DNA from: Coprothermobacterota bacterium
GTDB lineage: Bacteria; Coprothermobacterota; HKB111
Reading direction: 5' to 3'
Length of the DNA: 64,000 bases
Assembly: GCA_037440465.1 (NCBI GenBank)
Contig: JBBIUB010000001.1
Coordinates: 20,307-84,306, forward strand
Shown: positions 5,755-28,828 of the stretch, piece after piece
Position numbering within the stretch: position 1 is the first letter of the stretch
Layout of the letters: the number at the start of each line of letters is the position of its first letter
Made by a program: the position numbers and the translations under genes
The notes under the pieces: model-generated
Database searches by the model: none
What the model was told of the DNA's origin: nothing
Seen by the model: only the letters and a program-made list of their open reading frames with translations

Positions 5755-6829
5755 TCGAAATTACCTTAAGGAGAAAATCACGATTTAGCTCGGCCCTTTC
5801 CATCAGGGGAGGGAGAGCACTGGAAAGTTTATCTTTAACCGAAGAACTCTCCTCCATTATTCTGGAGATTTCATATATTAGATCAGCAGGGTTAACCTTA
5901 TCCATCGGTAGGATTATCCCCGTTCCTATTTCTTCAACAAGGTTAACCAGCTTAGGGTCATATGCCAATCCGATAAAAGGTACTCCAGTTACGACAGCAG
6001 ATATTAAAGGGTGAAGTCTTGATGCCATTACTAATTTTGCCCTCCCTATAATACCCAACATTACCCTTGGAGAACAATCATTCTCCAAATAATAAGCTCT
6101 CTCTTTTAATCTTTCCTTAATCAAGTTTAAGGCTTTTCGATCAAGACGAGGGTAAAAAGGTGCCACCAGAATCTCAAGACCAAACTCTTCTTTCAAGTAA
6201 AGAACACTCTGAATAAGCGCTTCAATAGAAACTGGTTTATCAACTGCCTTGGACGGAGATAGAAAAATGTAAGGCTTGCTTCTTATTCCCGTTGAATCTA
6301 ATATTTCATCTCCCGCATCGTAATCAGGTTTCAAAAGAAAAGCCAGATCAGCAGTTAGTTGTAAATAGTCTTTAAATCCAAGGCTTCTTATCAATTCTAA
6401 AGATACTTTATCACGAACACTCACAGCTTTTACTTTCTTAAGGACTTGCGACAGAAGTTTGAGACTTAAAGGTGAAATAAAAGGCCCTATTCCCTGAGCT
6501 AAAAGAATTGTAGGAACATTAAAAATCTGAGCTAAAAAAATTAGAGCAAGATAATAATAAAGACTCCTTCTGCTGGTCACATCCTGTAGTAAACCTCCTC
6601 CTCCACTTATGAAAAGGTCGGCTTTCCTTATCTCTGAGGCAATTACTGAAAAGTCATTGCGAGATATGGCTCTAATTTTAAACCTGGAAAAGGTATTAAT
6701 AGCCCGAGCAGATAGAACAACAATTTCTACTTCTGGGGAAATATCCCTCATAAGATTCACCAGAACCTCAAGAATAGCTTCATCCCCGACATTACCAAAT
6801 CCATAATATCCTGATACTACAATTCTCAA
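5741..6829 (-). CDS. csaB: Polysaccharide pyruvyl transferase CsaB
   Basis: The N-terminus MRIVVSGYYGFGNVGDEAIL is the hallmark of the CsaB/PS_pyruv_trans family. Its 3' end overlaps the convergent permease gene by 14 nt. Confidence 0.8.
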   Translation of the reverse strand: MRIVVSGYYGFGNVGDEAILEVLVNLMRDISPEVEIVVLSARAINTFSRFKIRAISRNDFSVIASEIRKADLFISGGGGLLQDVTSRRSLYYYLALIFLAQIFNVPTILLAQGIGPFISPLSLKLLSQVLKKVKAVSVRDKVSLELIRSLGFKDYLQLTADLAFLLKPDYDAGDEILDSTGIRSKPYIFLSPSKAVDKPVSIEALIQSVLYLKEEFGLEILVAPFYPRLDRKALNLIKERLKERAYYLENDCSPRVMLGIIGRAKLVMASRLHPLISAVVTGVPFIGLAYDPKLVNLVEEIGTGIILPMDKVNPADLIYEISRIMEESSSVKDKLSSALPPLMERAELNRDFLLKVISTKDL

Positions 6830-7533
6830 GGCAATCCTCGTTTTATAAATACTGTAATCAACCTAATAATGGTTAATAATAAACGTCGTAATCTTCGGGG
6901 TTCTTTAGTTGTTCGGTACAACCACTCCAATCCAAGACTTGTGAAAAAAAAGGGTGCTCTATGAGATTCACCACTCCAGACATCTATGGACCCCCCTACA
7001 CCGATAGTGGGTAAATTCAGCTCTTTCTTATTTGTATATATCCATATCTCTTGCTTGGGGGTACCCATCCCTACTATTAATAATGAAGAATCATTATCTT
7101 TAATATCTTTAATAATATTTTCATCGTTTTCAAAATAACCATCATGAAACCCTACTATATTAACACCATATTCTTGGCTTAGACTAAGATATGCTTTTTC
7201 TACAATAGAAGGTTTTGAACCAAGTAAATAAACTTTGGTATCAGGATAATGACTTAATATCTCTTCAGTCAGCTCTATTCCAGGAATAGCTTTCATTCGA
7301 ATGCCTTTGAACAACCTAACCAGAAAAGCCACCCATCTGCCATCTGAAACTACCAGAGAAGCTTCTTTAATAACTTTAGCTAAATTATCATCAATCAGGG
7401 CTAAACTCAATATCTCAAGGTTAAGTGTGACAACCTGGTAGAAGATTCCATCTTTTGTAGCAAGATGAATATTTTCAGCTGCCTTTTCAAGAGTTATGTT
7501 GTCTACCGGGATATCCCATAGGAAACATCTCAT
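6826..7533 (-). CDS. tagA: WecB/TagA/CpsF-family glycosyltransferase (probable N-acetylmannosaminyltransferase TagA)
   Basis: It is 235 aa, which is the TagA family size, and has a central LLGSKPSIVEKAYLSLSQEYGVNIVGFHDGYF block. It overlaps csaB by 4 nt. Confidence 0.8.
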   Translation of the reverse strand: MRCFLWDIPVDNITLEKAAENIHLATKDGIFYQVVTLNLEILSLALIDDNLAKVIKEASLVVSDGRWVAFLVRLFKGIRMKAIPGIELTEEILSHYPDTKVYLLGSKPSIVEKAYLSLSQEYGVNIVGFHDGYFENDENIIKDIKDNDSSLLIVGMGTPKQEIWIYTNKKELNLPTIGVGGSIDVWSGESHRAPFFFTSLGLEWLYRTTKEPRRLRRLLLTIIRLITVFIKRGLP

Positions 7534-8816
7534 AGTGAAAAGACAGTAAACCCTTCTTTTATAAGCTCATCTGCTATAAAAAGCCCTTTAAGGTCAACGA
7601 CTAATACGCTATCACCAACTATATGCTTGAGATAAGATGGTTTTAAAGTTAAATACTCCTGCTGAATGCCTGCTATAACTATTGCTTTAGCGTTATTTAG
7701 ACACTCTATCAGGTTTTCTGCTTCTTTACCAACTCCTGTCTTCACGAGAGGATCGTATGAATAAACATTAAAACCCGCTTTTATGAGAAGTTTTTTTAGT
7801 TTATATGCTGGACTAAGCCTAAAACTTGATGAAAAATCTTTCATAGCTTGACCAAGTAAGGCTATTTTTATTTGATCATAAGGAAGATTACTAAAGTATC
7901 CTTTTAAGATTGACACGATTTTCTCAGGAATTTGAGAGTTTAACTTCCTAGCTTTTGAGGAAAGTGAAAGTTTTCGTTCTTTAGAAGAAATGTGAGCAAG
8001 ATAGTAATAGGCATAAGGTATGCAATGTCCACCCACTCCTGGGCCTGGATTAAGGATATTAACCCTCTTATGAGTATTAGCGAGTCTGATCGCTTCCCTA
8101 CCCTTTATACCCTTAGAAGTAAGAAAATAAGCTACTTCATTAGCAAAAGCAATATTAACATCCCTTTGAAGATTTTCGAGCACTTTTGATGCTTCAACTT
8201 CCTTTAAAGAACTTACATGAAAAACACCCTTTGAAATGATCAATAAACACTGTTTTGCCCTTTCTATGCTTCCCTGGTTTATACCACCAAGAACAACATC
8301 CATATCTCTAAGCTCTTCAAAAGCTTTACCTTCCTGCATTCTCTCAGAAGCATATGCCAGGAAAAAATCATCTCCGCCTTTTAACCCACTTCTTTTCTCA
8401 AGGATAGGAAGAGCTATTTCTTCAGTAAAACCTGGATACACTGTACTTCTAATTAGAACCAGATCACCTTTTTTAAGGTTCTTACTTATTCCTTCAAGGC
8501 AACGCAATATAGCTGAAGAATCCAGTTTTTCTCCTTTTACCCCAATGCCTACTGTTACGATGATATCCTTTGGTCCTTCTAATTCTGCAGGTAAAAAAGT
8601 ATTAAGCTTTAATTTTCCACTTTCATTAGCCCATGATAGAATTTCTTTTATAGTACGACCTCTATCTTCTTCTTGAAAATTAACATTATTGCTCTTAAGG
8701 TTTTTTATGTGTTTTTCATTTATATCAATTCCAATAACAGAAAAATCATTTAGAACATATGTAAGAGCCAGGGGTAAGCCGACTGCACCTAAACCAAAGA
8801 CTATTATTTTATTCAT
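7530..8816 (-). CDS. UDP-N-acetyl-D-mannosamine (nucleotide-sugar) dehydrogenase
   Basis: The N-terminus MNKIIVFGLGAVGLPLA is a Rossmann GxGxxG fold, and the protein has UDP-glucose/GDP-mannose dehydrogenase family architecture. I took the start at the internal Met, which forms an ATGA overlap with the upstream gene's stop. Confidence 0.75.
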   Translation of the reverse strand: MNKIIVFGLGAVGLPLALTYVLNDFSVIGIDINEKHIKNLKSNNVNFQEEDRGRTIKEILSWANESGKLKLNTFLPAELEGPKDIIVTVGIGVKGEKLDSSAILRCLEGISKNLKKGDLVLIRSTVYPGFTEEIALPILEKRSGLKGGDDFFLAYASERMQEGKAFEELRDMDVVLGGINQGSIERAKQCLLIISKGVFHVSSLKEVEASKVLENLQRDVNIAFANEVAYFLTSKGIKGREAIRLANTHKRVNILNPGPGVGGHCIPYAYYYLAHISSKERKLSLSSKARKLNSQIPEKIVSILKGYFSNLPYDQIKIALLGQAMKDFSSSFRLSPAYKLKKLLIKAGFNVYSYDPLVKTGVGKEAENLIECLNNAKAIVIAGIQQEYLTLKPSYLKHIVGDSVLVVDLKGLFIADELIKEGFTVFSL

Positions 8817-9925
8817 GGAATTACTACTCCTTCCATTAGTTTTTGGTAAAGCCACTCTGTACGTTCCAGCATATGTTTTAAATTAAACCTGAGTAATACT
8901 TGCTTTCTGCCATTATTTCCCAGATTTTTTCTTAATTCTTCATCTTTAAGAAGAGTCACTACCTCCTTAGCAAGACATACTGTGTCTTTACGGGAGAAAA
9001 GAACTCCAGTTTTACCATGGGCGATAACTTCTTCTATTCCACCCACCTTTGAGGCTACCACTGGGACTCCGAGTCCCATGGTTTCAACAATAGCTAAACC
9101 CATTCCTTCCATAAGAGAGGGAAAAACCCCTACAGTAAAACAGGATATCTCACTATAGACATCTTTTACCCGACCAGTAAAAACTACGTATCTGTCAACG
9201 CCAAGTTCTTTAGCTTTCTGGTAAAGCCTGTCTTTAAGAGGCCCATCACCAATAAAACGAACTTCAACCTTTCCAAATTCTCTTAATATATAAGGGAGAG
9301 CCTCAAGAAGATAAATCTGCCCTTTTACCGTTACTAACCTTCCAACAGTACCTATAATTGGAGGATTACATGGAGTTAATAGATAGTTATTTAGAAGAGT
9401 TTCGTCAATACCATTATATACAACTTCAATATTAGAAAGCTTTAATCCTCTTCTTAAAAGATGTAAAAGAACAGCCCTGGAAACAGCTACATAAACATCT
9501 GTCATAGAACGGGTAATTGTATCAGCTATAGTAGCTGCTACTCCCCAAAGAGAGTTTGCGTAATCATATAAAGGTATACTATGAACTGTGGTTACTATCT
9601 TAGGAATTTCTCCCTTTCTCCGAGAAGCCCATCGTCCATAAAAATTTGCACGAACACCATGAGTATGCAGTATATGTAAATCTTCTTTTGCTAATACTGA
9701 AGGAAGGGTATTTAAAAAACTATAACCTAAAAAAGCTTTATATGGTAAAATTAGCGTAGGAATTCCAAGAGCTTCTGCTTCCTCCACGAGTGGTCCCTCT
9801 CCAAGGGCAATTATCATTGGTGAAAATAATTCCCGATTAATATGAGAAAGAAGGGTCAACAAATGTTGTTTTGCACCACCTGTATCACCTCCACCGATTA
9901 AATGAGCTACCTTGATTTTACTCAA
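8813..9925 (-). CDS. Glycosyltransferase family 4
   Basis: It has a GT4 N-terminal domain (KVAHLIGGGDTGGAKQHLL) and the C-terminal EGMGLAIVETMGLGVPVVASKVGG motif of GT1/GT4 enzymes. Confidence 0.8.
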   Translation of the reverse strand: MSKIKVAHLIGGGDTGGAKQHLLTLLSHINRELFSPMIIALGEGPLVEEAEALGIPTLILPYKAFLGYSFLNTLPSVLAKEDLHILHTHGVRANFYGRWASRRKGEIPKIVTTVHSIPLYDYANSLWGVAATIADTITRSMTDVYVAVSRAVLLHLLRRGLKLSNIEVVYNGIDETLLNNYLLTPCNPPIIGTVGRLVTVKGQIYLLEALPYILREFGKVEVRFIGDGPLKDRLYQKAKELGVDRYVVFTGRVKDVYSEISCFTVGVFPSLMEGMGLAIVETMGLGVPVVASKVGGIEEVIAHGKTGVLFSRKDTVCLAKEVVTLLKDEELRKNLGNNGRKQVLLRFNLKHMLERTEWLYQKLMEGVVIP

Positions 9926-20924: not shown

Positions 20925-21000
20925 TGGTGCGCCCGAGAGGATTCGAACCTCCAGCCTACGGCTCCGGAGGCCGTCGCTCTATCCATTGAGCTACGAGCGC
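20925..21000 (-). tRNA. tRNA-Arg (anticodon CCG)
   Basis: The minus-strand sequence is GCGCTCGTAGCTCAATGGATAGAGCGACGGCCTCCGGAGCCGTAGGCTGGAGGTTCGAATCCTCTCGGGCGCACCA. It folds as a cloverleaf with a 7-bp acceptor stem, a TTCGAAT T-loop, anticodon loop CTCCGGA, and an encoded CCA. Confidence 0.85.
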
Positions 21001-21058: not shown

Positions 21059-22528
21059 TTAAAGAATTTCAAGTGTATTAGACTCGGGTTTAAGCTGGGG
21101 GAATAATACTACATCTCTAATAGAAGATACTCCCAGAAGTATCATAGCCAAACGGTCAATACCAATTCCCAACCCTCCTGTAGGCGGCAGTCCATGTTCC
21201 AAAGCTATGAGATAATCTTCATCGACAACATGAGCCTCTTCATCCCCTCTTTCCTTCTTTTGAAGTTGGCCCTCAAATCGCTCTCTTTGAGTGAATGGAT
21301 CGTTAAGCTCACTAAAACCATTAGCAACTTCCATCCCTCTAATAAAAAGTTCAAAGCGGTCTGTGTACTCTGGATCATCTGCTCTTTCTTTAGCTAGTGG
21401 CGACAACAAAGCAGGGTAACCTGTTACAAATGTCGGCTCTATTAAAGTAGGTTCAATTATCTCTTTGAAAATCTCATCAACAACATTTTCCCAAAGAAGA
21501 GGTTTTTTCAGTTCTATGCCTTTCTTATTAAGATAATTTTTTGCAAATACTAAATCTTTTAACGCTTCCATTTCTATACCAACCTGGTTACTGAATAGTT
21601 CACGGTATTCAACTACTACGAAATCTTTTAGTAAGTTTATCTGTTTCCCTTCCCATTCAATTGATACATCAGGCAACAGACAAGGTATTATAAAATGAAT
21701 CATATCCTGGGTAAGTTTCATCATAGCTTCAAATCCCTGAAAAGCCCAATATACTTCCAACATAGTAAACTCTGGATTATGAATCCTGGAGATGCCTTCA
21801 TTACGAAAGTTCCTACTCACCTCAAACACCTTAAAGAAGCTTCCTACTACCAATCTTTTAAGGTATAGTTCAGGTGCTATTCTCAAAAATAGATCTGTTC
21901 CTAATGCTTGATGATGTGTAATAAATGGATTTGCAATTGCTCCGCCAGCAATAGATTGAAGTACTGGTGTCTCAACTTCCAGAAAACCTTTTTCATTTAG
22001 GAATTTTCTGATTAATTCTAATAGCTTACTTCTTTTTATAAAATCTTCTTTTACTTTAGGATTAACTAGAAGGTCGAGGTATCTAAATCTATAACGCTGT
22101 TCTATGTCTTTGAGACCATGCCATTTTTCAGGCAATGGCCTGAGGGCTTTTGTAAGAAAAAACCATTTACCAACTTCCAGAGTTATCTCCCCTCTTTTTG
22201 TTTTAAAAAGAGTCCCTTCTAATCCAAGAAAATCCCCTATATCAACAACATTTTTAAAGAGTTGAAAATTTTCACTACTAAGTTTAGCTTCTTGTAAATA
22301 AGCCTGAATTTTTCCTGTATCATCCATAATGTCTAAGAAAAGCGAACCTCCATGATCCCTGATACTCATAATTCTTCCTGCTATCTTCTGATAACTACCT
22401 TCAAAAGAAACGTAGTTTTCTTTTAAGAAGCAGATTTGAAAAGCATCAGGAAAGGGTTCTCCATATGGCTTTATCCCATTTTCTTTGAGATCAGTGAGTT
22501 TCTTAATTCTCTCCTCTCTTTCTCTCAA
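21059..22528 (-). CDS. lysS: Lysine--tRNA ligase (class II)
   Basis: A 489-aa protein with an N-terminal OB-fold anticodon-binding domain and class II motifs (FRNEG, GGLGIGIDRL). Confidence 0.95.
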   Translation of the reverse strand: MREREERIKKLTDLKENGIKPYGEPFPDAFQICFLKENYVSFEGSYQKIAGRIMSIRDHGGSLFLDIMDDTGKIQAYLQEAKLSSENFQLFKNVVDIGDFLGLEGTLFKTKRGEITLEVGKWFFLTKALRPLPEKWHGLKDIEQRYRFRYLDLLVNPKVKEDFIKRSKLLELIRKFLNEKGFLEVETPVLQSIAGGAIANPFITHHQALGTDLFLRIAPELYLKRLVVGSFFKVFEVSRNFRNEGISRIHNPEFTMLEVYWAFQGFEAMMKLTQDMIHFIIPCLLPDVSIEWEGKQINLLKDFVVVEYRELFSNQVGIEMEALKDLVFAKNYLNKKGIELKKPLLWENVVDEIFKEIIEPTLIEPTFVTGYPALLSPLAKERADDPEYTDRFELFIRGMEVANGFSELNDPFTQRERFEGQLQKKERGDEEAHVVDEDYLIALEHGLPPTGGLGIGIDRLAMILLGVSSIRDVVLFPQLKPESNTLEIL

Positions 22529-22530
22529 TG

Positions 22531-23013
22531 TTACCTCACAATCTCTTTTATTCTATAGGAAATACGACCAACAAGTGCATCTATGAAGAATTCCTCAAGT
22601 GCTCTTTTTCCAAGCACCGCATGGCCTAAGGGACTTTGAGCAGAAATGTAACATTTACGAGGATCCACTTCTTCGACATTACCAACAATAACATATTCTT
22701 CCTCTTCTCCAGCAGTGATGTTTTCTAACTTTACACGGCTTCCTATTGTCACTGTTTCTGAGGGTAAATCTCTCTCTTCAAGAACAGTAGCTATCCTGAG
22801 AATTTTCTCCAATTCGAGAATTCTACCCTCAACAAAAGCTTGTTCGTTTTTTGCATCCTCATACTCTGAATTATCGGTGATGTCACCATATTCTTTAGCT
22901 TGAACTATCCTTTCTGCTACTTCTTTGCGTCTTACTGTTCGGAGATATTCAAGTTCTTCCTCCAGCTTCTTTAATCCATCTTTACTGATATATAAACGAC
23001 CAGTTTCTGCCAT
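22531..23013 (-). CDS. greA: Transcription elongation factor GreA
   Basis: It is 160 aa with a coiled-coil N-terminus and a C-terminal GreA/GreB domain (ISAQSPLGHAVLGKRALEEFFIDALVGRISYRIKEI). Confidence 0.9.
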   Translation of the reverse strand: MAETGRLYISKDGLKKLEEELEYLRTVRRKEVAERIVQAKEYGDITDNSEYEDAKNEQAFVEGRILELEKILRIATVLEERDLPSETVTIGSRVKLENITAGEEEEYVIVGNVEEVDPRKCYISAQSPLGHAVLGKRALEEFFIDALVGRISYRIKEIVR

Positions 23014-23020
23014 TGTATCT

Positions 23021-24103
23021 TCACCTCCCTGAATGAAGAGCTTTTAATTTAATTCTTTCTATTTCTTCTGGTTTCAAGACTCTTTCAAAACTTCTAAAAC
23101 CTGCCAACTTAAAACCATGCTTCTTCGCTAACTCACTTATCTCTACTACTTTAGAAATATCTAATTCCTTGCCTAATGAAAAAGTATTATATTTTCGTTC
23201 TAATGTCAGAATCATTGTTTCAGACATACAAGCATATGCCAAGCCTGGAGGAAACCCAAAATTATAATTAAAAGATGGTGTTCCAGGAACTTTAATTACA
23301 CCACCTTCAATAACCAAAACATCTTCCCTATCTCGAGATACTCTTGTAGAAACATCTCTTGGTCTTGCTACATCACATACTACAGCTCCAGGTTTTAACA
23401 TCTCAGGCTCTATTACTTGATGAACTGCGCTGGAAACAGCTACAATAGCATCTGCCCTTTTAATCCCCTTTGATATTGAAGAAGTTGATTCTACACTCAA
23501 TCCTTCTTCCATTAAAGATCTACTAATTTCATTTAGTTTCTCTTCATTCCTTCCTATTAAAACTGTGCTCTTAAATCTTGGCGCCATTAAATAAGCAGCA
23601 GCTTTACCTATTGAGCCTGTAGCACCTACTATGGCTAGCTCAGCATCTTTTGAATCAACTTCCATAAGTTTCAAAGCCTCAAAAGTCCCTTCTATTGCTG
23701 ATGCTACCGTATAACTATTTCCAGTTGTAACAGCAATTTTAAGATTTTCTTTTATAGTAATTCCACCATCTCCAACCACTGAGGTAAAAGCCCCAAGCCC
23801 AACAATGCTTGCGCCCTGACTTTCCGCAAGCTTACCAGCTTCAATTATCTTTTCATAGACATATGGCAAGGGGAGGGTTACCATCTGTTCGGAAGTTAGA
23901 GGACAAGCAATGAAGAACCCTTCAATCTCCTCACCGTTATAATCAGACTTTATACCTTTTATATAAGAACTCACAAAAGCTTTTCGTTTTTTTAAAAGAT
24001 TTAGAACGAGTGAGGGTGGAAGAAATCTTGCCCAACTTAATTTCTTAACGATGTCATTATAATTTATAGGATGGAGAATAAAAGCAAATATTTCCATGTC
24101 CAA
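23021..24103 (-). CDS. NAD(P)-dependent oxidoreductase of the cyanobacterial acyl-ACP reductase (AAR)-like family
   Basis: Similarity to Synechococcus AAR runs across the whole length: GASIVGLGAFTSVV vs HGIDISALGGFTSII; VTTGNSYTVASAIE vs FTTGNTHTAYVICR; LAIVGATGSIGKAAAYL vs VAVVGATGDIGSAVCRW; VLVIEGGVIK vs IYVLNGGVVE; AYACMSETMILTLE vs FACFAEAMLLEFE. Confidence 0.6.
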   Translation of the reverse strand: MDMEIFAFILHPINYNDIVKKLSWARFLPPSLVLNLLKKRKAFVSSYIKGIKSDYNGEEIEGFFIACPLTSEQMVTLPLPYVYEKIIEAGKLAESQGASIVGLGAFTSVVGDGGITIKENLKIAVTTGNSYTVASAIEGTFEALKLMEVDSKDAELAIVGATGSIGKAAAYLMAPRFKSTVLIGRNEEKLNEISRSLMEEGLSVESTSSISKGIKRADAIVAVSSAVHQVIEPEMLKPGAVVCDVARPRDVSTRVSRDREDVLVIEGGVIKVPGTPSFNYNFGFPPGLAYACMSETMILTLERKYNTFSLGKELDISKVVEISELAKKHGFKLAGFRSFERVLKPEEIERIKLKALHSGR

Positions 24104-24106
24104 TTC

Positions 24107-25018
24107 TCAGGGATTAAGAAAATCTATCCTTGGTCTCAAGGAGATTCTTTCCAGGAATTTCTCAGCTTCTTCATTAGTAACCTCATCAGGTGGTTTATCC
24201 AGAAAGGAAACTAACAATCCTTCAATAACATTGGTTCCAAAGGAGCGCCCTTCCCATTCTGGCGTAGTAGTTACTAGAAGTTTAACCCCTCTTTCTTTTA
24301 GGAGTTCCCGATCTTCACTCGTTACAGTATTAGTTAATATTAACTTTCCTTTCAAATCCAAGGGTGAATATCTTCTTATGAAATGAAAATCACCTGCTAT
24401 AAGATCTGCCCAATCAAAATAATGAGTAAAACGAGGTTCACTTTCATCTTGTTTTTTACCAACAGGATAAAGAAAACTCATAGGGAGGTAAGTAAGAATG
24501 GGAAGTAGCAAAGAAGCAACAATATCTACTGATTTAAGTGTCCTTAAAGGAAAAGGAAGTCCAAGAGCAAAAAGGAAGTCTCCAAATATAAGAGGACACC
24601 CGATCTGGCTTAACGCTTCACTAATGCTGTATCTATCAACAGCACTTACTACCAGTGTTTTTGTCTTATTATTAATTATTCCTTGGTTAAATAAAGTAAA
24701 AACAACCTTATTTTCCCAATTATTTTTTATTAGGGCACCATCTACAACATATGATTTCTTTACTAAATTTTTTAGTTTTAAGGCATCCTTTATGATATAT
24801 CTCTTATTTTTTGCAAATAAATATAGGCTTATACCGCCAAGGCCTATAGCATTTACCTGGCCATCTTGTTCTTTTATAAGGTCAAACATCCTGGAGAAAT
24901 TGCCATCTGTCCCTATCCTTTCAAGGCTGACTTTCTCTCCCAGAATATCTAACTCTACTCTATGATTTCTCTTAGATGAACCTAAACTAATGCTAACAAT
25001 TTTTTTCATTGACACCAC
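24107..25018 (-). CDS. Conserved hypothetical protein, possibly AroM-like (Asp/Glu racemase-like fold)
   Basis: A 303-aa soluble protein with an N-terminal IVSISLGSS...IGLGGIS block and a C-terminal LILTNTVTSEDRELLKERGVKLLVTT block, loosely resembling E. coli AroM. It is immediately downstream of the AAR-like gene with a 3-nt gap. Confidence 0.3.
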   Translation of the reverse strand: MVSMKKIVSISLGSSKRNHRVELDILGEKVSLERIGTDGNFSRMFDLIKEQDGQVNAIGLGGISLYLFAKNKRYIIKDALKLKNLVKKSYVVDGALIKNNWENKVVFTLFNQGIINNKTKTLVVSAVDRYSISEALSQIGCPLIFGDFLFALGLPFPLRTLKSVDIVASLLLPILTYLPMSFLYPVGKKQDESEPRFTHYFDWADLIAGDFHFIRRYSPLDLKGKLILTNTVTSEDRELLKERGVKLLVTTTPEWEGRSFGTNVIEGLLVSFLDKPPDEVTNEEAEKFLERISLRPRIDFLNP

Positions 25019-25119: not shown

Positions 25120-25194
25120 TGGAGCCGGCAGAGGGAGTTGGACCCTCAACCTGCTGATTACGATTCAGCTGCTCTACCATTGAGCTACACCGGC
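25120..25194 (-). tRNA. tRNA-Thr (anticodon CGT)
   Basis: The minus-strand sequence is GCCGGTGTAGCTCAATGGTAGAGCAGCTGAATCGTAATCAGCAGGTTGAGGGTCCAACTCCCTCTGCCGGCTCCA. It has a 7-bp acceptor stem with two G-U pairs, anticodon loop ATCGTAA, and an encoded CCA. The T-loop TCCAACT is slightly atypical. Confidence 0.75.
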
Positions 25195-25288: not shown

Positions 25289-25471
25289 AAGGATTCAAAG
25301 AGTCAATGAATATAGGACCCAAGAGGTCCAGGATTCAAGGGTTCAAGTGAATTGCATATGAATAACAAAGGAATAAAGGGTTATAGAAGTTGATTTTTTT
25401 ATTTTCTCTCGAATCCTCGAATCCTTGAATCCTCTAACCCTTCTTAGTAAACACTCGAAACCTTGAATCCT
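25289..25471. repeat. Imperfect inverted-repeat element of about 180 bp built from GGATTCAAG / CTTGAATCC units, 95 bp from tRNA-Thr
   Basis: The left arm carries AGGATTCAAAGAGTC and AGGATTCAAGGGTTCAAG. The right arm carries CTCGAATCCTTGAATCCT and CTCGAAACCTTGAATCCT, which are reverse complements of the left units and include a tandem GAATCC run. An internal palindrome GGACCCAAGAGGTCC is also present. No ORF is associated. Confidence 0.5.
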
Positions 25472-25576: not shown

Positions 25577-26581
25577 ATGCAAAAGATAGGTGTAATCTCA
25601 TACGGGTTAGGTCCTATTGGAAAAGGAATTGCCAAGACTGCTCATCAGAGGAAGGAATTAATCTTAATTGGTGGAGTAGATATTAATCCACAATTACATG
25701 GTAAAGATTTTGGAGAAGTAATTAGCATTGGTCCACTTGGTGTAAAAATAAAAAGCAGTCTTAAAGAAATCCCTGTTGAACAAGCAAAGGTTGTCTTACA
25801 TTCTACTCAATCATCATTTCCAAAGGTTTTTGATCAGCTTGAAGAAATCGCTAAATTAGGACTTAATATTATCTCAACCACAGAAGAATTATCTTACCCT
25901 TTTATCAAATATCCAGTACTTTCTGAGAAACTTGACAAGATAGCTAAAGAAAATGGTATTACCATACTCGGGACAGGAGTAAACCCGGGTTTTTTAATGG
26001 ATTCTTTTCCTCTATTCATCACATCAGTATCTAATAAAGTTAAGAGAATCCATATACTACGTTTGATGGACGCATCCAAAAGAAGAGGACCATTCCAAGT
26101 TAAGATTGGTTCAGGACTTACTACCCATGAATTTCATAACCTGGTTAAAAATGGAAAACTGGGTCATGTCGGACTTGAAGAATCAATTCAGTTTATCACT
26201 ACCTCCTTAAAGGTAGAGTTAGGAGACTACAAAGAATCTATCAAACCTGTACTTGCTGAAGAAAATATTAAAACAGATTATTTAGAAGTTTCTGCTGGTA
26301 TGGTAAGAGGTATTGATCAGGTTGGCATTGGATTTGATAAAGAAGGTAATGAAATAGTACGATTAGAGTTCAAGGCTTATCTTGAAGCTAAGAATCCACA
26401 TGATTTAATTGAAATTGAGGGTGATCCTTCTTTAACAGTTGTTATCCCTGGTGGAGTTCCGGGTGACATTGCTACTTCTTCTATAGTAACAAATGCCATA
26501 CCAAGAGTACTAAATGCATCTCCAGGTCTTCTTACAATGAAAGATATCCCAATAACTCATAATTTTGGAAGTTTTAAGTAG
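25577..26581 (+). CDS. DapB-like NAD(P)H-dependent amine dehydrogenase family protein (2,4-diaminopentanoate dehydrogenase-like)
   Basis: It has an N-terminal Rossmann fold (MQKIGVISYGLGPIGKGIAKTA) and a C-terminal DapB_C-like region, and its 334-aa length matches the Ord/native-AmDH family. An RBS (GGGAGG) is upstream. Confidence 0.5.
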   Translation: MQKIGVISYGLGPIGKGIAKTAHQRKELILIGGVDINPQLHGKDFGEVISIGPLGVKIKSSLKEIPVEQAKVVLHSTQSSFPKVFDQLEEIAKLGLNIISTTEELSYPFIKYPVLSEKLDKIAKENGITILGTGVNPGFLMDSFPLFITSVSNKVKRIHILRLMDASKRRGPFQVKIGSGLTTHEFHNLVKNGKLGHVGLEESIQFITTSLKVELGDYKESIKPVLAEENIKTDYLEVSAGMVRGIDQVGIGFDKEGNEIVRLEFKAYLEAKNPHDLIEIEGDPSLTVVIPGGVPGDIATSSIVTNAIPRVLNASPGLLTMKDIPITHNFGSFK

Positions 26582-26595
26582 CGAGAGACTTAGAA

Positions 26596-27624
26596 ATGAA
26601 AGCAATTGTTAAGAAAACTTTAGAAAAGGGAGTCTCTCTTGAGGAGGTTGGAATACCCCAACCAAGAGAAGGAGAGGTACTTATTAAAGTAAAATATTCT
26701 TCTATTTGCGGCACAGATCTTCATATTTACCTCTCAGACAACTGGGCTACCAATAGGATTCATCCACCTCTCATAATTGGACACGAAATGGGTGGAGAGG
26801 TTGTAGAACTTGGACCCAAAGTATCCCATATCAAGTTAGGAGATAGAGTTGGTGTTGAAACTCACATAGTTAACTGGAAAACTCGAGAATCAAGAACAGG
26901 TAAAGCACATCTATGTTCCAGCACAAAAATCCTTGGTGTAGACATGGATGGATCTTTTGCTGAGTATGTGGTATTACCAGAAGTAAATGTAATACCCAAC
27001 CCAACATCAATACCAGATGAATTCTTATCGATTGAAGAACCACTTGGTAACGCTGTTCATGCAGCCACAACCGTTAGTGTTCCTGGTAAAAATGTACTCG
27101 TTGTGGGAAGTGGCCCAGTAGGGCTTCTACTTATTGCTGTTTTAAAATGTTTTGGCACAACGAGAGTATTTGTCTCTGAGATAAATCGTTATCGACTTGA
27201 TTTAGCTCAGAAGGTTGGTGCAGACAGAGCTATTAACCCTAAAGAGTTAGACCTTTTAGAAATCATCCGTGAGGAAACAGGAGGAGAAGGTTTAGATATT
27301 GCATTTGACATGTCTGGAAATAGCTCGGGAATAAACCAAGCTATTAAATCATTAAGACCGGGTGGAGATATGGTTTTCTTTGGTTTACCCAGGATGCCTG
27401 TGAATATAAATATCGCAGATGACATTATTTTTAGAGGATTAACTCTACATGGAATAATAGGACGAAAAATGTTTGACACCTGGTATGAGGTATTAGACCT
27501 CCTTGAGAACAAAAAGATAGATTTAGGACCTATCATTACCCACCGTTTCCCATATGAAGAGATAGACAAAGCCATGGATTTAATGGACAGAGGAGAATCC
27601 GGGAAAATTCTTCTCTTCCCTTAG
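26596..27624 (+). CDS. tdh: L-threonine 3-dehydrogenase (Zn-dependent MDR family)
   Basis: A catalytic zinc site (CGTDLH) and a structural zinc region are present, with a GSGPVGLL Rossmann fold. It is 342 aa and adjacent to kbl. Confidence 0.8.
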   Translation: MKAIVKKTLEKGVSLEEVGIPQPREGEVLIKVKYSSICGTDLHIYLSDNWATNRIHPPLIIGHEMGGEVVELGPKVSHIKLGDRVGVETHIVNWKTRESRTGKAHLCSSTKILGVDMDGSFAEYVVLPEVNVIPNPTSIPDEFLSIEEPLGNAVHAATTVSVPGKNVLVVGSGPVGLLLIAVLKCFGTTRVFVSEINRYRLDLAQKVGADRAINPKELDLLEIIREETGGEGLDIAFDMSGNSSGINQAIKSLRPGGDMVFFGLPRMPVNINIADDIIFRGLTLHGIIGRKMFDTWYEVLDLLENKKIDLGPIITHRFPYEEIDKAMDLMDRGESGKILLFP

Positions 27625-27628
27625 GAGG

Positions 27629-28828
27629 ATGAAAATGAAACCATTTATTGAAGAAATCCTTAGAAACAACTTGAAGAAGTTAGAAGATGAACACTTACTT
27701 ATCACTTTAAAAATTCTCTCATCTTCTCAAGGACCCTGGGTTGAGATGGGAGGAAGAAGGGTTTTAAATCTTTCTTCAAATAATTATCTTGGATTCAACT
27801 CACACCCATCACTTATAAAAGCTTCCATTGAAGCAACAGAAAAATGGGGAGTTGGTTCAGGTGCAGTTCGTACGATAGTAGGTACACAAGAAATTCATAT
27901 GGAGTTGGAACACGAGCTTGCTTCCTTCAAGAAGGTTGGTGCATGCCTGGTTTTTCAATCAGGTTATGCCACTAACCTTGGCGTTATTCAAGCACTCATG
28001 ACAGAGGGAGATGTAATTATCTCAGATGAACTGAACCACGCTTCTATAATTGATGGTGCCCGTCTTTCTAAAGCAAAGATTCATGTTTACCGCCATGTTG
28101 ATATGAATCACTTAGAAGAAAAACTAAAGGAAGCCAGAGATTTAAAACCTGGAAAAATCCTTTTAGTTACCGATGGTGTCTTCAGCATGGACGGGGACAT
28201 TGCTCCACTACCACAGATTACAGAGCTTGCTGAAAGATATGAAGCTATCTTGATGGTAGACGATGCTCACGCATCTGGAGTTCTTGGAAGAAATGGAAGA
28301 GGTACTGTTGACCATTTCAATCTTCACGGTAGAGTTGACATCCAAGTTGGTACACTTTCAAAAGCACTTGGTACCATGGGAGGTTATGTAGCAAGTAGTC
28401 AAACATTTGTAACATTCTTGATACAAAAAGGGCGTCCAATCCTCTTCTCTACTTCCCACCCTCCAGGAGTTGTAGCTGCTACTTTAGTTTCACTAAAAAT
28501 CATCAATTCACTTGAAGGAGAAGAATTGATTAAGAAACTCTGGGAGAACACAGGTTATTTCAAAGATAACCTTAAAAACGCCGGGTTTAATATTGGTGTT
28601 TCCCAGACTCCAATTACTCCTATAATGGTAGGAGATGCTGAAGTTGCCCAGAAATACAGTTCCCTGCTTTTAGAAGATGGTGTCCTTGCTCTGGGAATTG
28701 GTTATCCTACTGTAGCTCTCGGTAAAGCTCGGATTAGAACTATAGTCACATCTTCTCATACAAAAAAAGACCTGGACCTCGCCCTGAAAACTCTCTGTAA
28801 AATAGGGAGAAAAATAGGTATCATCTAA
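27629..28828 (+). CDS. kbl: 2-amino-3-ketobutyrate CoA ligase (glycine C-acetyltransferase)
   Basis: A 399-aa fold-type I aminotransferase of the 8-amino-7-oxononanoate synthase family (SNNYLGF, DDAHASGVLG, the TLSKALG PLP-Lys region). It is paired with tdh. Confidence 0.85.
   Translation: MKMKPFIEEILRNNLKKLEDEHLLITLKILSSSQGPWVEMGGRRVLNLSSNNYLGFNSHPSLIKASIEATEKWGVGSGAVRTIVGTQEIHMELEHELASFKKVGACLVFQSGYATNLGVIQALMTEGDVIISDELNHASIIDGARLSKAKIHVYRHVDMNHLEEKLKEARDLKPGKILLVTDGVFSMDGDIAPLPQITELAERYEAILMVDDAHASGVLGRNGRGTVDHFNLHGRVDIQVGTLSKALGTMGGYVASSQTFVTFLIQKGRPILFSTSHPPGVVAATLVSLKIINSLEGEELIKKLWENTGYFKDNLKNAGFNIGVSQTPITPIMVGDAEVAQKYSSLLLEDGVLALGIGYPTVALGKARIRTIVTSSHTKKDLDLALKTLCKIGRKIGII

Follow-up and report, generated by a model that had tools for sequence, protein, structure and literature searches.

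An AAR/PigE-superfamily thioester reductase and its conserved partner protein P303 in a Coprothermobacterota bacterium

The window analysed here, a stretch of 64,000 nucleotides of a Coprothermobacterota bacterium (assembly GCA_037440465.1, contig JBBIUB010000001.1, positions 20,307 to 84,306), was found to contain two adjacent genes on the minus strand, the first encoding a protein of 303 amino acids and the second a protein of 360 amino acids. The 360-amino-acid protein is a new member of the thioester-reductase superfamily that contains acyl-ACP (acyl carrier protein) reductase (AAR) and PigE. The novelty lies in its partner, called P303 here together with its gene and family, which represents a large unmodelled family, appears to resemble the reductase in fold while having a rebuilt active site, and occurs repeatedly as a fusion with the reductase. 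The pair is proposed, with middling confidence, to form a two-module enzyme in which the reductase would make an aldehyde and P303 would act as the coupled partner for the carbonyl product, a system distinct from the cyanobacterial alkane pathway.

The reductase and the P303 family

Among the NCBIfam models, the 360-amino-acid protein was found to match best the N-terminal region of PigE (NF053554, 204.7 bits, profile positions 45-354 of 837), followed by cyanobacterial AAR (TIGR04058, 97.6 bits, profile positions 50-335 of 339), both scores lying below the respective cutoffs (850 bits for the PigE equivalog and 449.7 bits for AAR). Comparison with PDB sequences returned PigE (4ppm_A, E 4e-34) and AAR (6jzq_A, E 1.4e-19); Pfam matched a generic Rossmann region alone (Shikimate_DH), and the hemA profile matches were weak (31.8 bits). 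The first-pass annotation had described an alignment with AAR along the whole length of the protein. Residues 56-332 were found to pair with residues 51-335 of the about 340 in AAR (6jzq), which leaves that description largely intact, but the PigE region scored better. The names given to such reductases in the databases ('shikimate dehydrogenase', 'saccharopine dehydrogenase NADP-binding domain-containing protein', 'polysaccharide biosynthesis protein' and 'Aminotransferase PigE') had no support in these searches.

The catalytic cysteine and the GxTGxIG loop, which the first-pass annotation had named as features to be checked, were both found to be kept. The cysteine, Cys292, lies in AYACMSETM, of which YACMSETM pairs with FACFAEAM of 6jzq at the equivalent of AAR Cys294. 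The NADPH loop was present as G160-ATGSIG-166, with VGATGSIG (residues 159-166) paired with VGATGDIG of AAR, and the second Rossmann strand is followed, again as in AAR, by Arg184-Asn185. A TTGN motif was located at residues 126-129. Cys292, GATGSIG and TTGN were found to be invariant in 26 aligned diverse homologs and to be kept in the 32 full-length intact neighbours that were aligned. Judged by these motifs, the protein is an AAR-superfamily Cys/NADPH thioester reductase, and it is strongly implied to have everything needed for the Cys/NADPH-dependent reduction of a thioester to an aldehyde. By its scores and domain content it is neither an AAR equivalog nor a PigE equivalog. It is not AAR proper because its score was far under the cutoff and no aldehyde deformylating oxygenase (ADO) was found nearby, and it is not PigE because it contains no aminotransferase domain. 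As the first-pass annotation had stated for the adjacent genes, no ferritin-like or ADO family was found among the Pfam-annotated genes within about 6 kb, the only part of the window covered for ADO.

AAR (TIGR04058; PDB 6jzq/6jzu) belongs to the same superfamily and has the same fold as the 360-amino-acid protein, with the cysteine at a helix start, GATGxIG, TTGN and Arg-Asn common to both, and it likewise stands next to a dedicated partner protein, which is ADO for AAR and P303 for the reductase. Here, however, the partner would be a second, rewired AAR-fold protein instead of a ferritin-like oxygenase, and an O2-dependent deformylase would be pointless in the hosts, which are anaerobes. PigE of the prodigiosin MAP pathway (NF053554; PDB 4ppm) is the best sequence match and has the same conserved cysteine; by analogy with AAR and glutamyl-tRNA reductase, the reduction of a thioester to an aldehyde via Cys296 has been argued for its N-terminal domain (PMC8341465). 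Unlike PigE, the reductase of the window is without an aminotransferase domain and is not part of a pigment or polyketide cluster, and PigE is without a P303-like partner. Glutamyl-tRNA reductase (GluTR, HemA) with glutamate-1-semialdehyde aminomutase (GSAM) has the same Cys-thioester/NADPH chemistry and the same principle of aldehyde hand-over, whereas its similarity to the window reductase is distant (the 31.8 bits given above) and no sign of a tRNA-bound substrate was found despite the adjacent lysS. The terminal amidation domain (TAD) of CarI in the carmabin pathway (PDB 9e4s) keeps the invariant cysteine and binds NAD (bioRxiv 10.1101/2024.10.28.620694). It differs from P303, which has neither the cysteine nor the glycine-rich loop, and the TAD is a terminal domain of a nonribosomal peptide synthetase whereas P303 is free-standing or fused to the reductase. 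The earlier statement that AAR homologs outside the cyanobacteria are essentially uncharacterised overlooks the reductase domain of PigE (PMC8341465) and the structure of the carmabin TAD (bioRxiv 10.1101/2024.10.28.620694). The Streptomyces TabE reductase was set aside as an unrelated enzyme of the ALDH type.

At 90% identity the P303 family was found to comprise more than 4,000 clusters, and at 50% identity 885 representatives. Between phyla its members shared about 50% of their residues, and an alignment of 28 diverse sequences contained 57 invariant columns. Neither the single sequence nor the family profile matched anything in Pfam, NCBIfam or the PDB sequences, and phmmer and a profile search of PDB gave nothing significant. 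A full-text literature search returned no paper that describes the pair or the P303 family. The partner had been called AroM-like; Pfam AroM (PF07302) was matched neither by the window protein nor by any of the 28 members, and comparison with E. coli AroM gave an hhalign probability of 0.3% over 18 columns for the family profile and a BLASTP E value of 2.8, by which that identity was rejected. A shikimate or quinate dehydrogenase identity was rejected likewise, as there was no Pfam or NCBIfam match to either family and no dinucleotide-binding glycine motif. The database labels, which are 'quinate 5-dehydrogenase' for P303 (NCBI, UniRef) and 'serine carboxypeptidase' or 'predicted amino acid dehydrogenase' for its fusions, were unsupported by the searches made here.

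The AlphaFold2 (AF2) model of P303 had a pLDDT of 92.7, and in a Foldseek comparison of the model with solved structures the highest TM-score was that of AAR (0.46), which is thus the closest solved fold to the predicted one. In an hhalign alignment of the two family profiles, the correspondence was colinear: VSAVDRFG was paired with VGATGSIG, and GTNVxE with ACMxET, by which Asn263 takes the place of Cys292. Two further correspondences, GLGG with GLGA and VDGS with TTGN, were read by eye. The catalytic places in P303 are accordingly filled by Asn263 for the cysteine, SAVDRY (family consensus SAVDRFG) for the glycine-rich NADPH loop and VDG for TTGN. About 20 polar residues of P303 were found to be conserved across 338 split, distant and fused members, among them Ser9, Ser11, Arg17, Arg34, Asp52, Asp93, Lys98, Glu102, Asp128, Arg129, Asp147, Asp210, Asn263 and Glu266. 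From the model and the motif order, P303 would be a diverged copy of the AAR fold without the cysteine and the glycine-rich loop, and it is probably a paralog of the reductase. Judged from its residues, P303 cannot be a Cys-dependent reductase, because other invariant polar residues occupy the three catalytic places in the colinear alignment; by its conservation it looks like an enzyme or a specific ligand binder.

Fusion, adjacency and decay of the pair

More than 100 clusters at 90% identity were found to be natural fusions of 675-746 amino acids with an N-terminal P303 and a C-terminal reductase module, and we regard them as the decisive evidence for a functional link of the two modules. 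The fused form was found in Anaerolineae, Riflebacteria, Wallbacteria and others, including unclassified bacteria, and a metagenome scan contained 35 fused loci and about 28 split loci. The window pair shows the same two modules in the same order, P303 and then the reductase in adjacent genes, each with the motifs of its family. Two other fusions bear on the roles of the modules: a protein of 762 amino acids (P0307) was found to join an alpha-oxoamine synthase of the BioF/Kbl type to P303, and in one locus (L006, positions 6985-9507) the gene that comes directly after P303 was found to encode a reductase with a class-III aminotransferase fused to its N-terminus. This last protein joins a reductase to a class-III aminotransferase as PigE does, but in the reversed domain order.

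In a species-level scan with one genome per species, at least 597 P303 loci were confirmed, and the counts of loci given here refer to the best 80 of them. The region downstream of P303 was found to contain the following:

33/80 loci: intact reductase, with the cysteine and GATGSIG, directly downstream of P303; L078, in which the reductase is cut by the contig end, is included.
1/80 loci (L069): near-full-length copy of the reductase directly downstream of P303, with Trp in place of the cysteine and a degenerate loop.
8/80 loci: full-length, fast-evolving relic that matches the reductase profile weakly and is without both motifs.
Remaining loci of the 80: no reductase in the locus.

The 33 intact pairs were from Bacillota, Sumerlaeota, Lithacetigena and unclassified metagenome-assembled genomes (MAGs); Thermoanaerobacter, Moorella and Heliomicrobium are examples of hosts with an intact pair. 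The earlier proposal of an AAR-family reductase with a novel partner outside the cyanobacteria therefore held for the superfamily and for the conserved partner, given these adjacent loci and the fusion clusters, but not for an assignment as strong as AAR. Relic reductases were found after P303 in L011, L012, L015, L016, L020, L049, L056, L069 and L073; in one of them, MILWEEGNLG stands in place of IVGATGSIG. The relics were found to evolve much faster than P303, with identities per genome pair of 40% against 70%, 34% against 76% and 58% against 88%, respectively. Such relics, kept beside an intact P303, are candidate pseudoenzymes.

Among the loci without a reductase, about seven contained P303 directly beside greA and about four were too short downstream of P303 to judge. 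Nine Peptococcaceae loci (L033, L037, L053, L054, L057, L059, L067, L068 and L072) contained P303 followed not by the reductase but by a 117-amino-acid SCP2-domain protein and an APC-family permease of about 455 amino acids, of the amino-acid/polyamine type. The reductase of the Peptococcaceae was found in the ancestral block birA-bioY-coaX-dusB-HTH-reductase-greA-lysS, from which P303 had moved elsewhere. In Desulfofundulus and Desulfotomaculum copahuensis both genes were present and unlinked, in the latter on different contigs. P303 profile scores were 420-530 bits even where the reductase was degenerate or absent. Because P303 persists intact in loci with a decayed or missing reductase, this conservation strongly implies that P303 has a role independent of reductase catalysis. 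On the pattern across genomes, the partnership of P303 and the reductase is real and is not obligate.

Other features of these loci were also recorded. A conserved protein of 175-182 amino acids with an N-terminal helix-turn-helix (HTH) and an unassigned C-terminal alpha/beta domain was found directly upstream of P303 in half of the loci (40/80, within L005-L080), and where P303 had moved away it was found directly upstream of the reductase (L083, positions 6445-6969; L085, positions 6436-6963); in the 64-kb window no such protein was detected. Contigs labelled as human gut metagenome assemblies (L103 and L124) also carried P303 and the reductase as separate genes in the greA-lysS setting, so the system extends beyond thermophilic and subsurface anaerobes.

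The locus in the window and its neighbours

The pair lies in a tight, co-directional string of genes, with the following features in transcription order:

25120-25194, minus strand: tRNA-Thr(CGU), about 110 nt upstream of the likely P303 start.
24107-25018, minus strand: P303 gene, 303 amino acids as the longest open reading frame (ORF) from GTG 25018; uncharacterised, highly conserved family.
23021-24103, minus strand: reductase gene, 360 amino acids as the longest ORF from TTG 24103; AAR/PigE-type NADPH-dependent thioester reductase.
22531-23013, minus strand: greA; conserved neighbour in relatives.
21059-22528, minus strand: lysS, class II lysyl-tRNA synthetase, after greA; conserved neighbour in relatives.
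20925-21000: tRNA-Arg(CCG), beyond lysS, last in transcription order.

The two ORFs, 3 nt apart, were recovered exactly as the first-pass annotation had placed them. The 303-amino-acid gene had been said to follow the reductase, but both genes are on the minus strand and P303 is upstream. As longest ORFs, the four protein genes are separated by spacers of 3, 7 and 2 nt. The likely real starts are ATG 25009 for P303 (300 amino acids), which is preceded by a GGGTGG Shine-Dalgarno sequence, and ATG 24097 for the reductase (358 amino acids), with a spacer of 9 nt between the two genes. This choice matches the database proteins P0001 (P303) and P0121 (reductase), which begin at the internal ATGs. 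At 24097-24109 on the minus strand, both ORFs were found to be in one reading frame, split by a TGA and one GAA codon before the TTG and ATG starts. The shared frame is probably due to chance, because TGA is an ordinary stop nearby (that of the reductase gene, too) and the gaps of other split loci are not divisible by three.

An extended -10 element of the TGnTATAAT type was read by eye at 25047-25039, between tRNA-Thr and P303; it was not returned by a consensus promoter scan. The Rfam search of the region upstream of the operon returned no riboswitch, T-box or other leader RNA, the two tRNAs being the sole matches. The region was found to be identical to contig CAZLUH010000001.1 of the MAG GCA_964562715.1, with identical proteins (E 1e-194 and 1e-227). 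Each of the two proteins had hundreds of strong homologs, and the nearest relatives of both, at 61-73% identity, were from 'candidate division WS2' and Candidatus Lithacetigena.

Beyond tRNA-Thr, three divergent genes were found at 25577-28828 on the plus strand, encoding a 2,4-diaminopentanoate-dehydrogenase-like (Ord-like) protein, L-threonine 3-dehydrogenase (tdh) and an acyltransferase of the Kbl/BioF family (kbl). The Ord-like protein scored 260 bits against NF040740, under the cutoff of 400. An Ord-like amine dehydrogenase ahead of tdh-kbl is an unusual combination, and the adjoining tRNA is tRNA-Thr. The spacer between tRNA-Thr and these genes, at 25290-25471, contained GGATTC(A/G)AGG decamers, one on the plus strand and three on the minus strand, which form several imperfect inverted repeats with degenerate copies. 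Exact matches to the decamer numbered 4 in the window against 0.27 expected, all within 25290-25471, and by its sequence this cluster may be an operator array. A link of P303 to the nearby kbl was considered and dropped: the proximity was treated as coincidence because no BioF/Kbl-type gene was present among the recurrent neighbour clusters of the 80 genome loci.

The neighbours in other genomes gave hints of the substrate. On the lipid side, some fused genes were found near wax-ester synthase, a PlsC-type acyltransferase, an epimerase-type reductase, alpha/beta hydrolases and phasins, and on the amine side the neighbours were ornithine/DAP (diaminopimelate) decarboxylase, aminotransferases and an APC permease. 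These contexts hint at both lipid and amine chemistry. Neither coaX, dusB, birA and the HTH gene nor SCP2 and wax-ester synthase were found in the 64-kb window. A neighbour of 150 amino acids next to some fused genes was considered as SCP2-like and dropped, with no Pfam match and no BLAST similarity to the true SCP2 neighbour. Lysyl-tRNA, suggested by the adjacent lysS, was set aside as the substrate since the suggestion came from synteny alone and greA-lysS is simply part of a conserved block.

Proposed mechanism, alternatives and meaning

The two-module enzyme system would consist of separate subunits in the window and of one chain of 675-746 amino acids in many other bacteria. According to the motifs and the homology, an acyl group from a thioester (acyl-ACP or acyl-CoA) would be transferred to Cys292 of the reductase, followed by the reduction of the acyl-enzyme by NADPH and the release of an aldehyde. 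P303, which would present Asn263-x-x-Glu266, Asp128-Arg129 and Asp93-Gly94 at the catalytic places together with Asp147, Lys98 and Glu102, may then accept the carbonyl product or convert it further. This last step is the weakest of the argument and is drawn by analogy: P303 is taken as the partner for the carbonyl product because the characterised relatives hand their aldehyde to a partner, from AAR to ADO, from GluTR to GSAM and from the PigE reductase to its aminotransferase. Both the Cys/NADPH mechanism and the channelling of the aldehyde have been described for AAR, GluTR and PigE (PMC8341465; bioRxiv 10.1101/2024.10.28.620694). The fusion of an oxoamine synthase to P303 fits an acceptor of carbonyls, since a reactive carbonyl is released by the oxoamine synthase as well; the same fusion fits a supplier of acyl groups equally, because both fused enzymes consume an acyl thioester.

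Several findings weigh against this mechanism. About half of the 80 loci contained P303 without an intact adjacent reductase, and P303 therefore cannot strictly depend on the product of the reductase. The first-pass annotation had taken loss of the pair in relatives as a sign against its proposal; the pair was kept in many relatives, and in about half of the loci the reductase was degenerate, absent or unlinked. The Foldseek TM-scores were below 0.5, and glutamate dehydrogenases and periplasmic binding proteins had E values similar to that of AAR. The hhalign comparison of the P303 family with the reductase family was not significant (E 0.22), because of which common ancestry rests on the predicted structure and the order of the motifs. 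In the AF2 model of a natural fusion, both halves had a pLDDT of 88, the pTM was 0.57 and no confident interface was predicted. The neighbourhoods of the fused form were heterogeneous, and in Bacillota the pair was found in the housekeeping block birA-bioY-coaX-dusB-HTH-P303-reductase-greA-lysS, which says little on function.

The main rival is that P303 acts before the reductase and makes or delivers an activated acyl substrate, for example an acyl-phosphate or a thioester bound to a protein or to CoA, by a logic that resembles such kinase-reductase pairs as ProB-ProA (fused as P5CS), ArgB-ArgC and LuxE-LuxC. We consider this possible but on the whole unlikely. It is consistent with the position of P303, which is N-terminal in all fusions and upstream in operons, with the alpha-oxoamine synthase of P0307, which also consumes an acyl thioester, and with the reductase of L006, which already has a fused aminotransferase of its own as aldehyde acceptor. 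The conserved Ser/Gly/Lys/Arg and Asp motifs at the ends of strands would also suit the binding of a nucleotide or phosphate, as would Asp147, which follows the second Rossmann strand. That P303 is instead a non-catalytic pseudo-reductase, which senses a ligand or serves as a scaffold and regulates or stabilises the active reductase, was judged improbable. P303 is at least as conserved as the reductase, with about 50% identity across phyla and about 20 near-invariant polar residues, and its persistence where the reductase is decayed or absent is the opposite of what is expected for a mere regulator.

The version of the first-pass annotation, a genuine long-chain acyl-ACP reductase of the alkane-pathway type beside an AroM-like protein, is very improbable. 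The significant similarity to AAR along most of the length and the conserved cysteine and NADPH motifs speak for it, but the AAR score was 97.6 bits against the TIGR04058 cutoff of 449.7 with PigE scoring higher, no ADO was present among the called neighbours, and the relation to AroM was tested and not found. Least credible of all is an adjacency that merely preserves an inherited housekeeping gene order with no functional link. In Bacillota both genes do belong to a long stretch of conserved synteny that includes dusB, greA and lysS, and the pair is split or incomplete in many genomes; yet more than 100 independent fusion clusters occur in phyla without that block, and the adjacency was kept in the lineage of the window, in which coaX, dusB and the HTH gene are absent from the 64 kb.

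The preferred reading thus remains the two-module enzyme with P303 as the partner for the carbonyl product. A broader extension of it is offered only tentatively and is doubtful as a whole: that P303 founds a new enzyme class on the AAR scaffold with Cys-independent carbonyl or acyl chemistry, and that together with its reductase paralog it would form a widespread, unrecognised pathway from acyl thioester to aldehyde to lipid or amine, with some lineages keeping the reductase as a pseudoenzyme partner. The hosts in this joint proposal would be anaerobic Bacillota, Lithacetigena-like bacteria, Anaerolineae and several candidate phyla.

The pair is a testable lead for enzyme discovery, for which the entry point is the reduction of an acyl thioester followed by the action of P303 on the acyl or aldehyde group. 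Lineages in which the reductase has decayed provide a natural experiment on the passage from enzyme to pseudoenzyme. Should the pair prove to form fatty aldehydes, alcohols or amines in the absence of oxygen, this would matter for biocatalysis, in which aldehyde-forming reductases with a channelling partner are sought, and for the membrane-lipid biology of thermophilic and syntrophic anaerobes.

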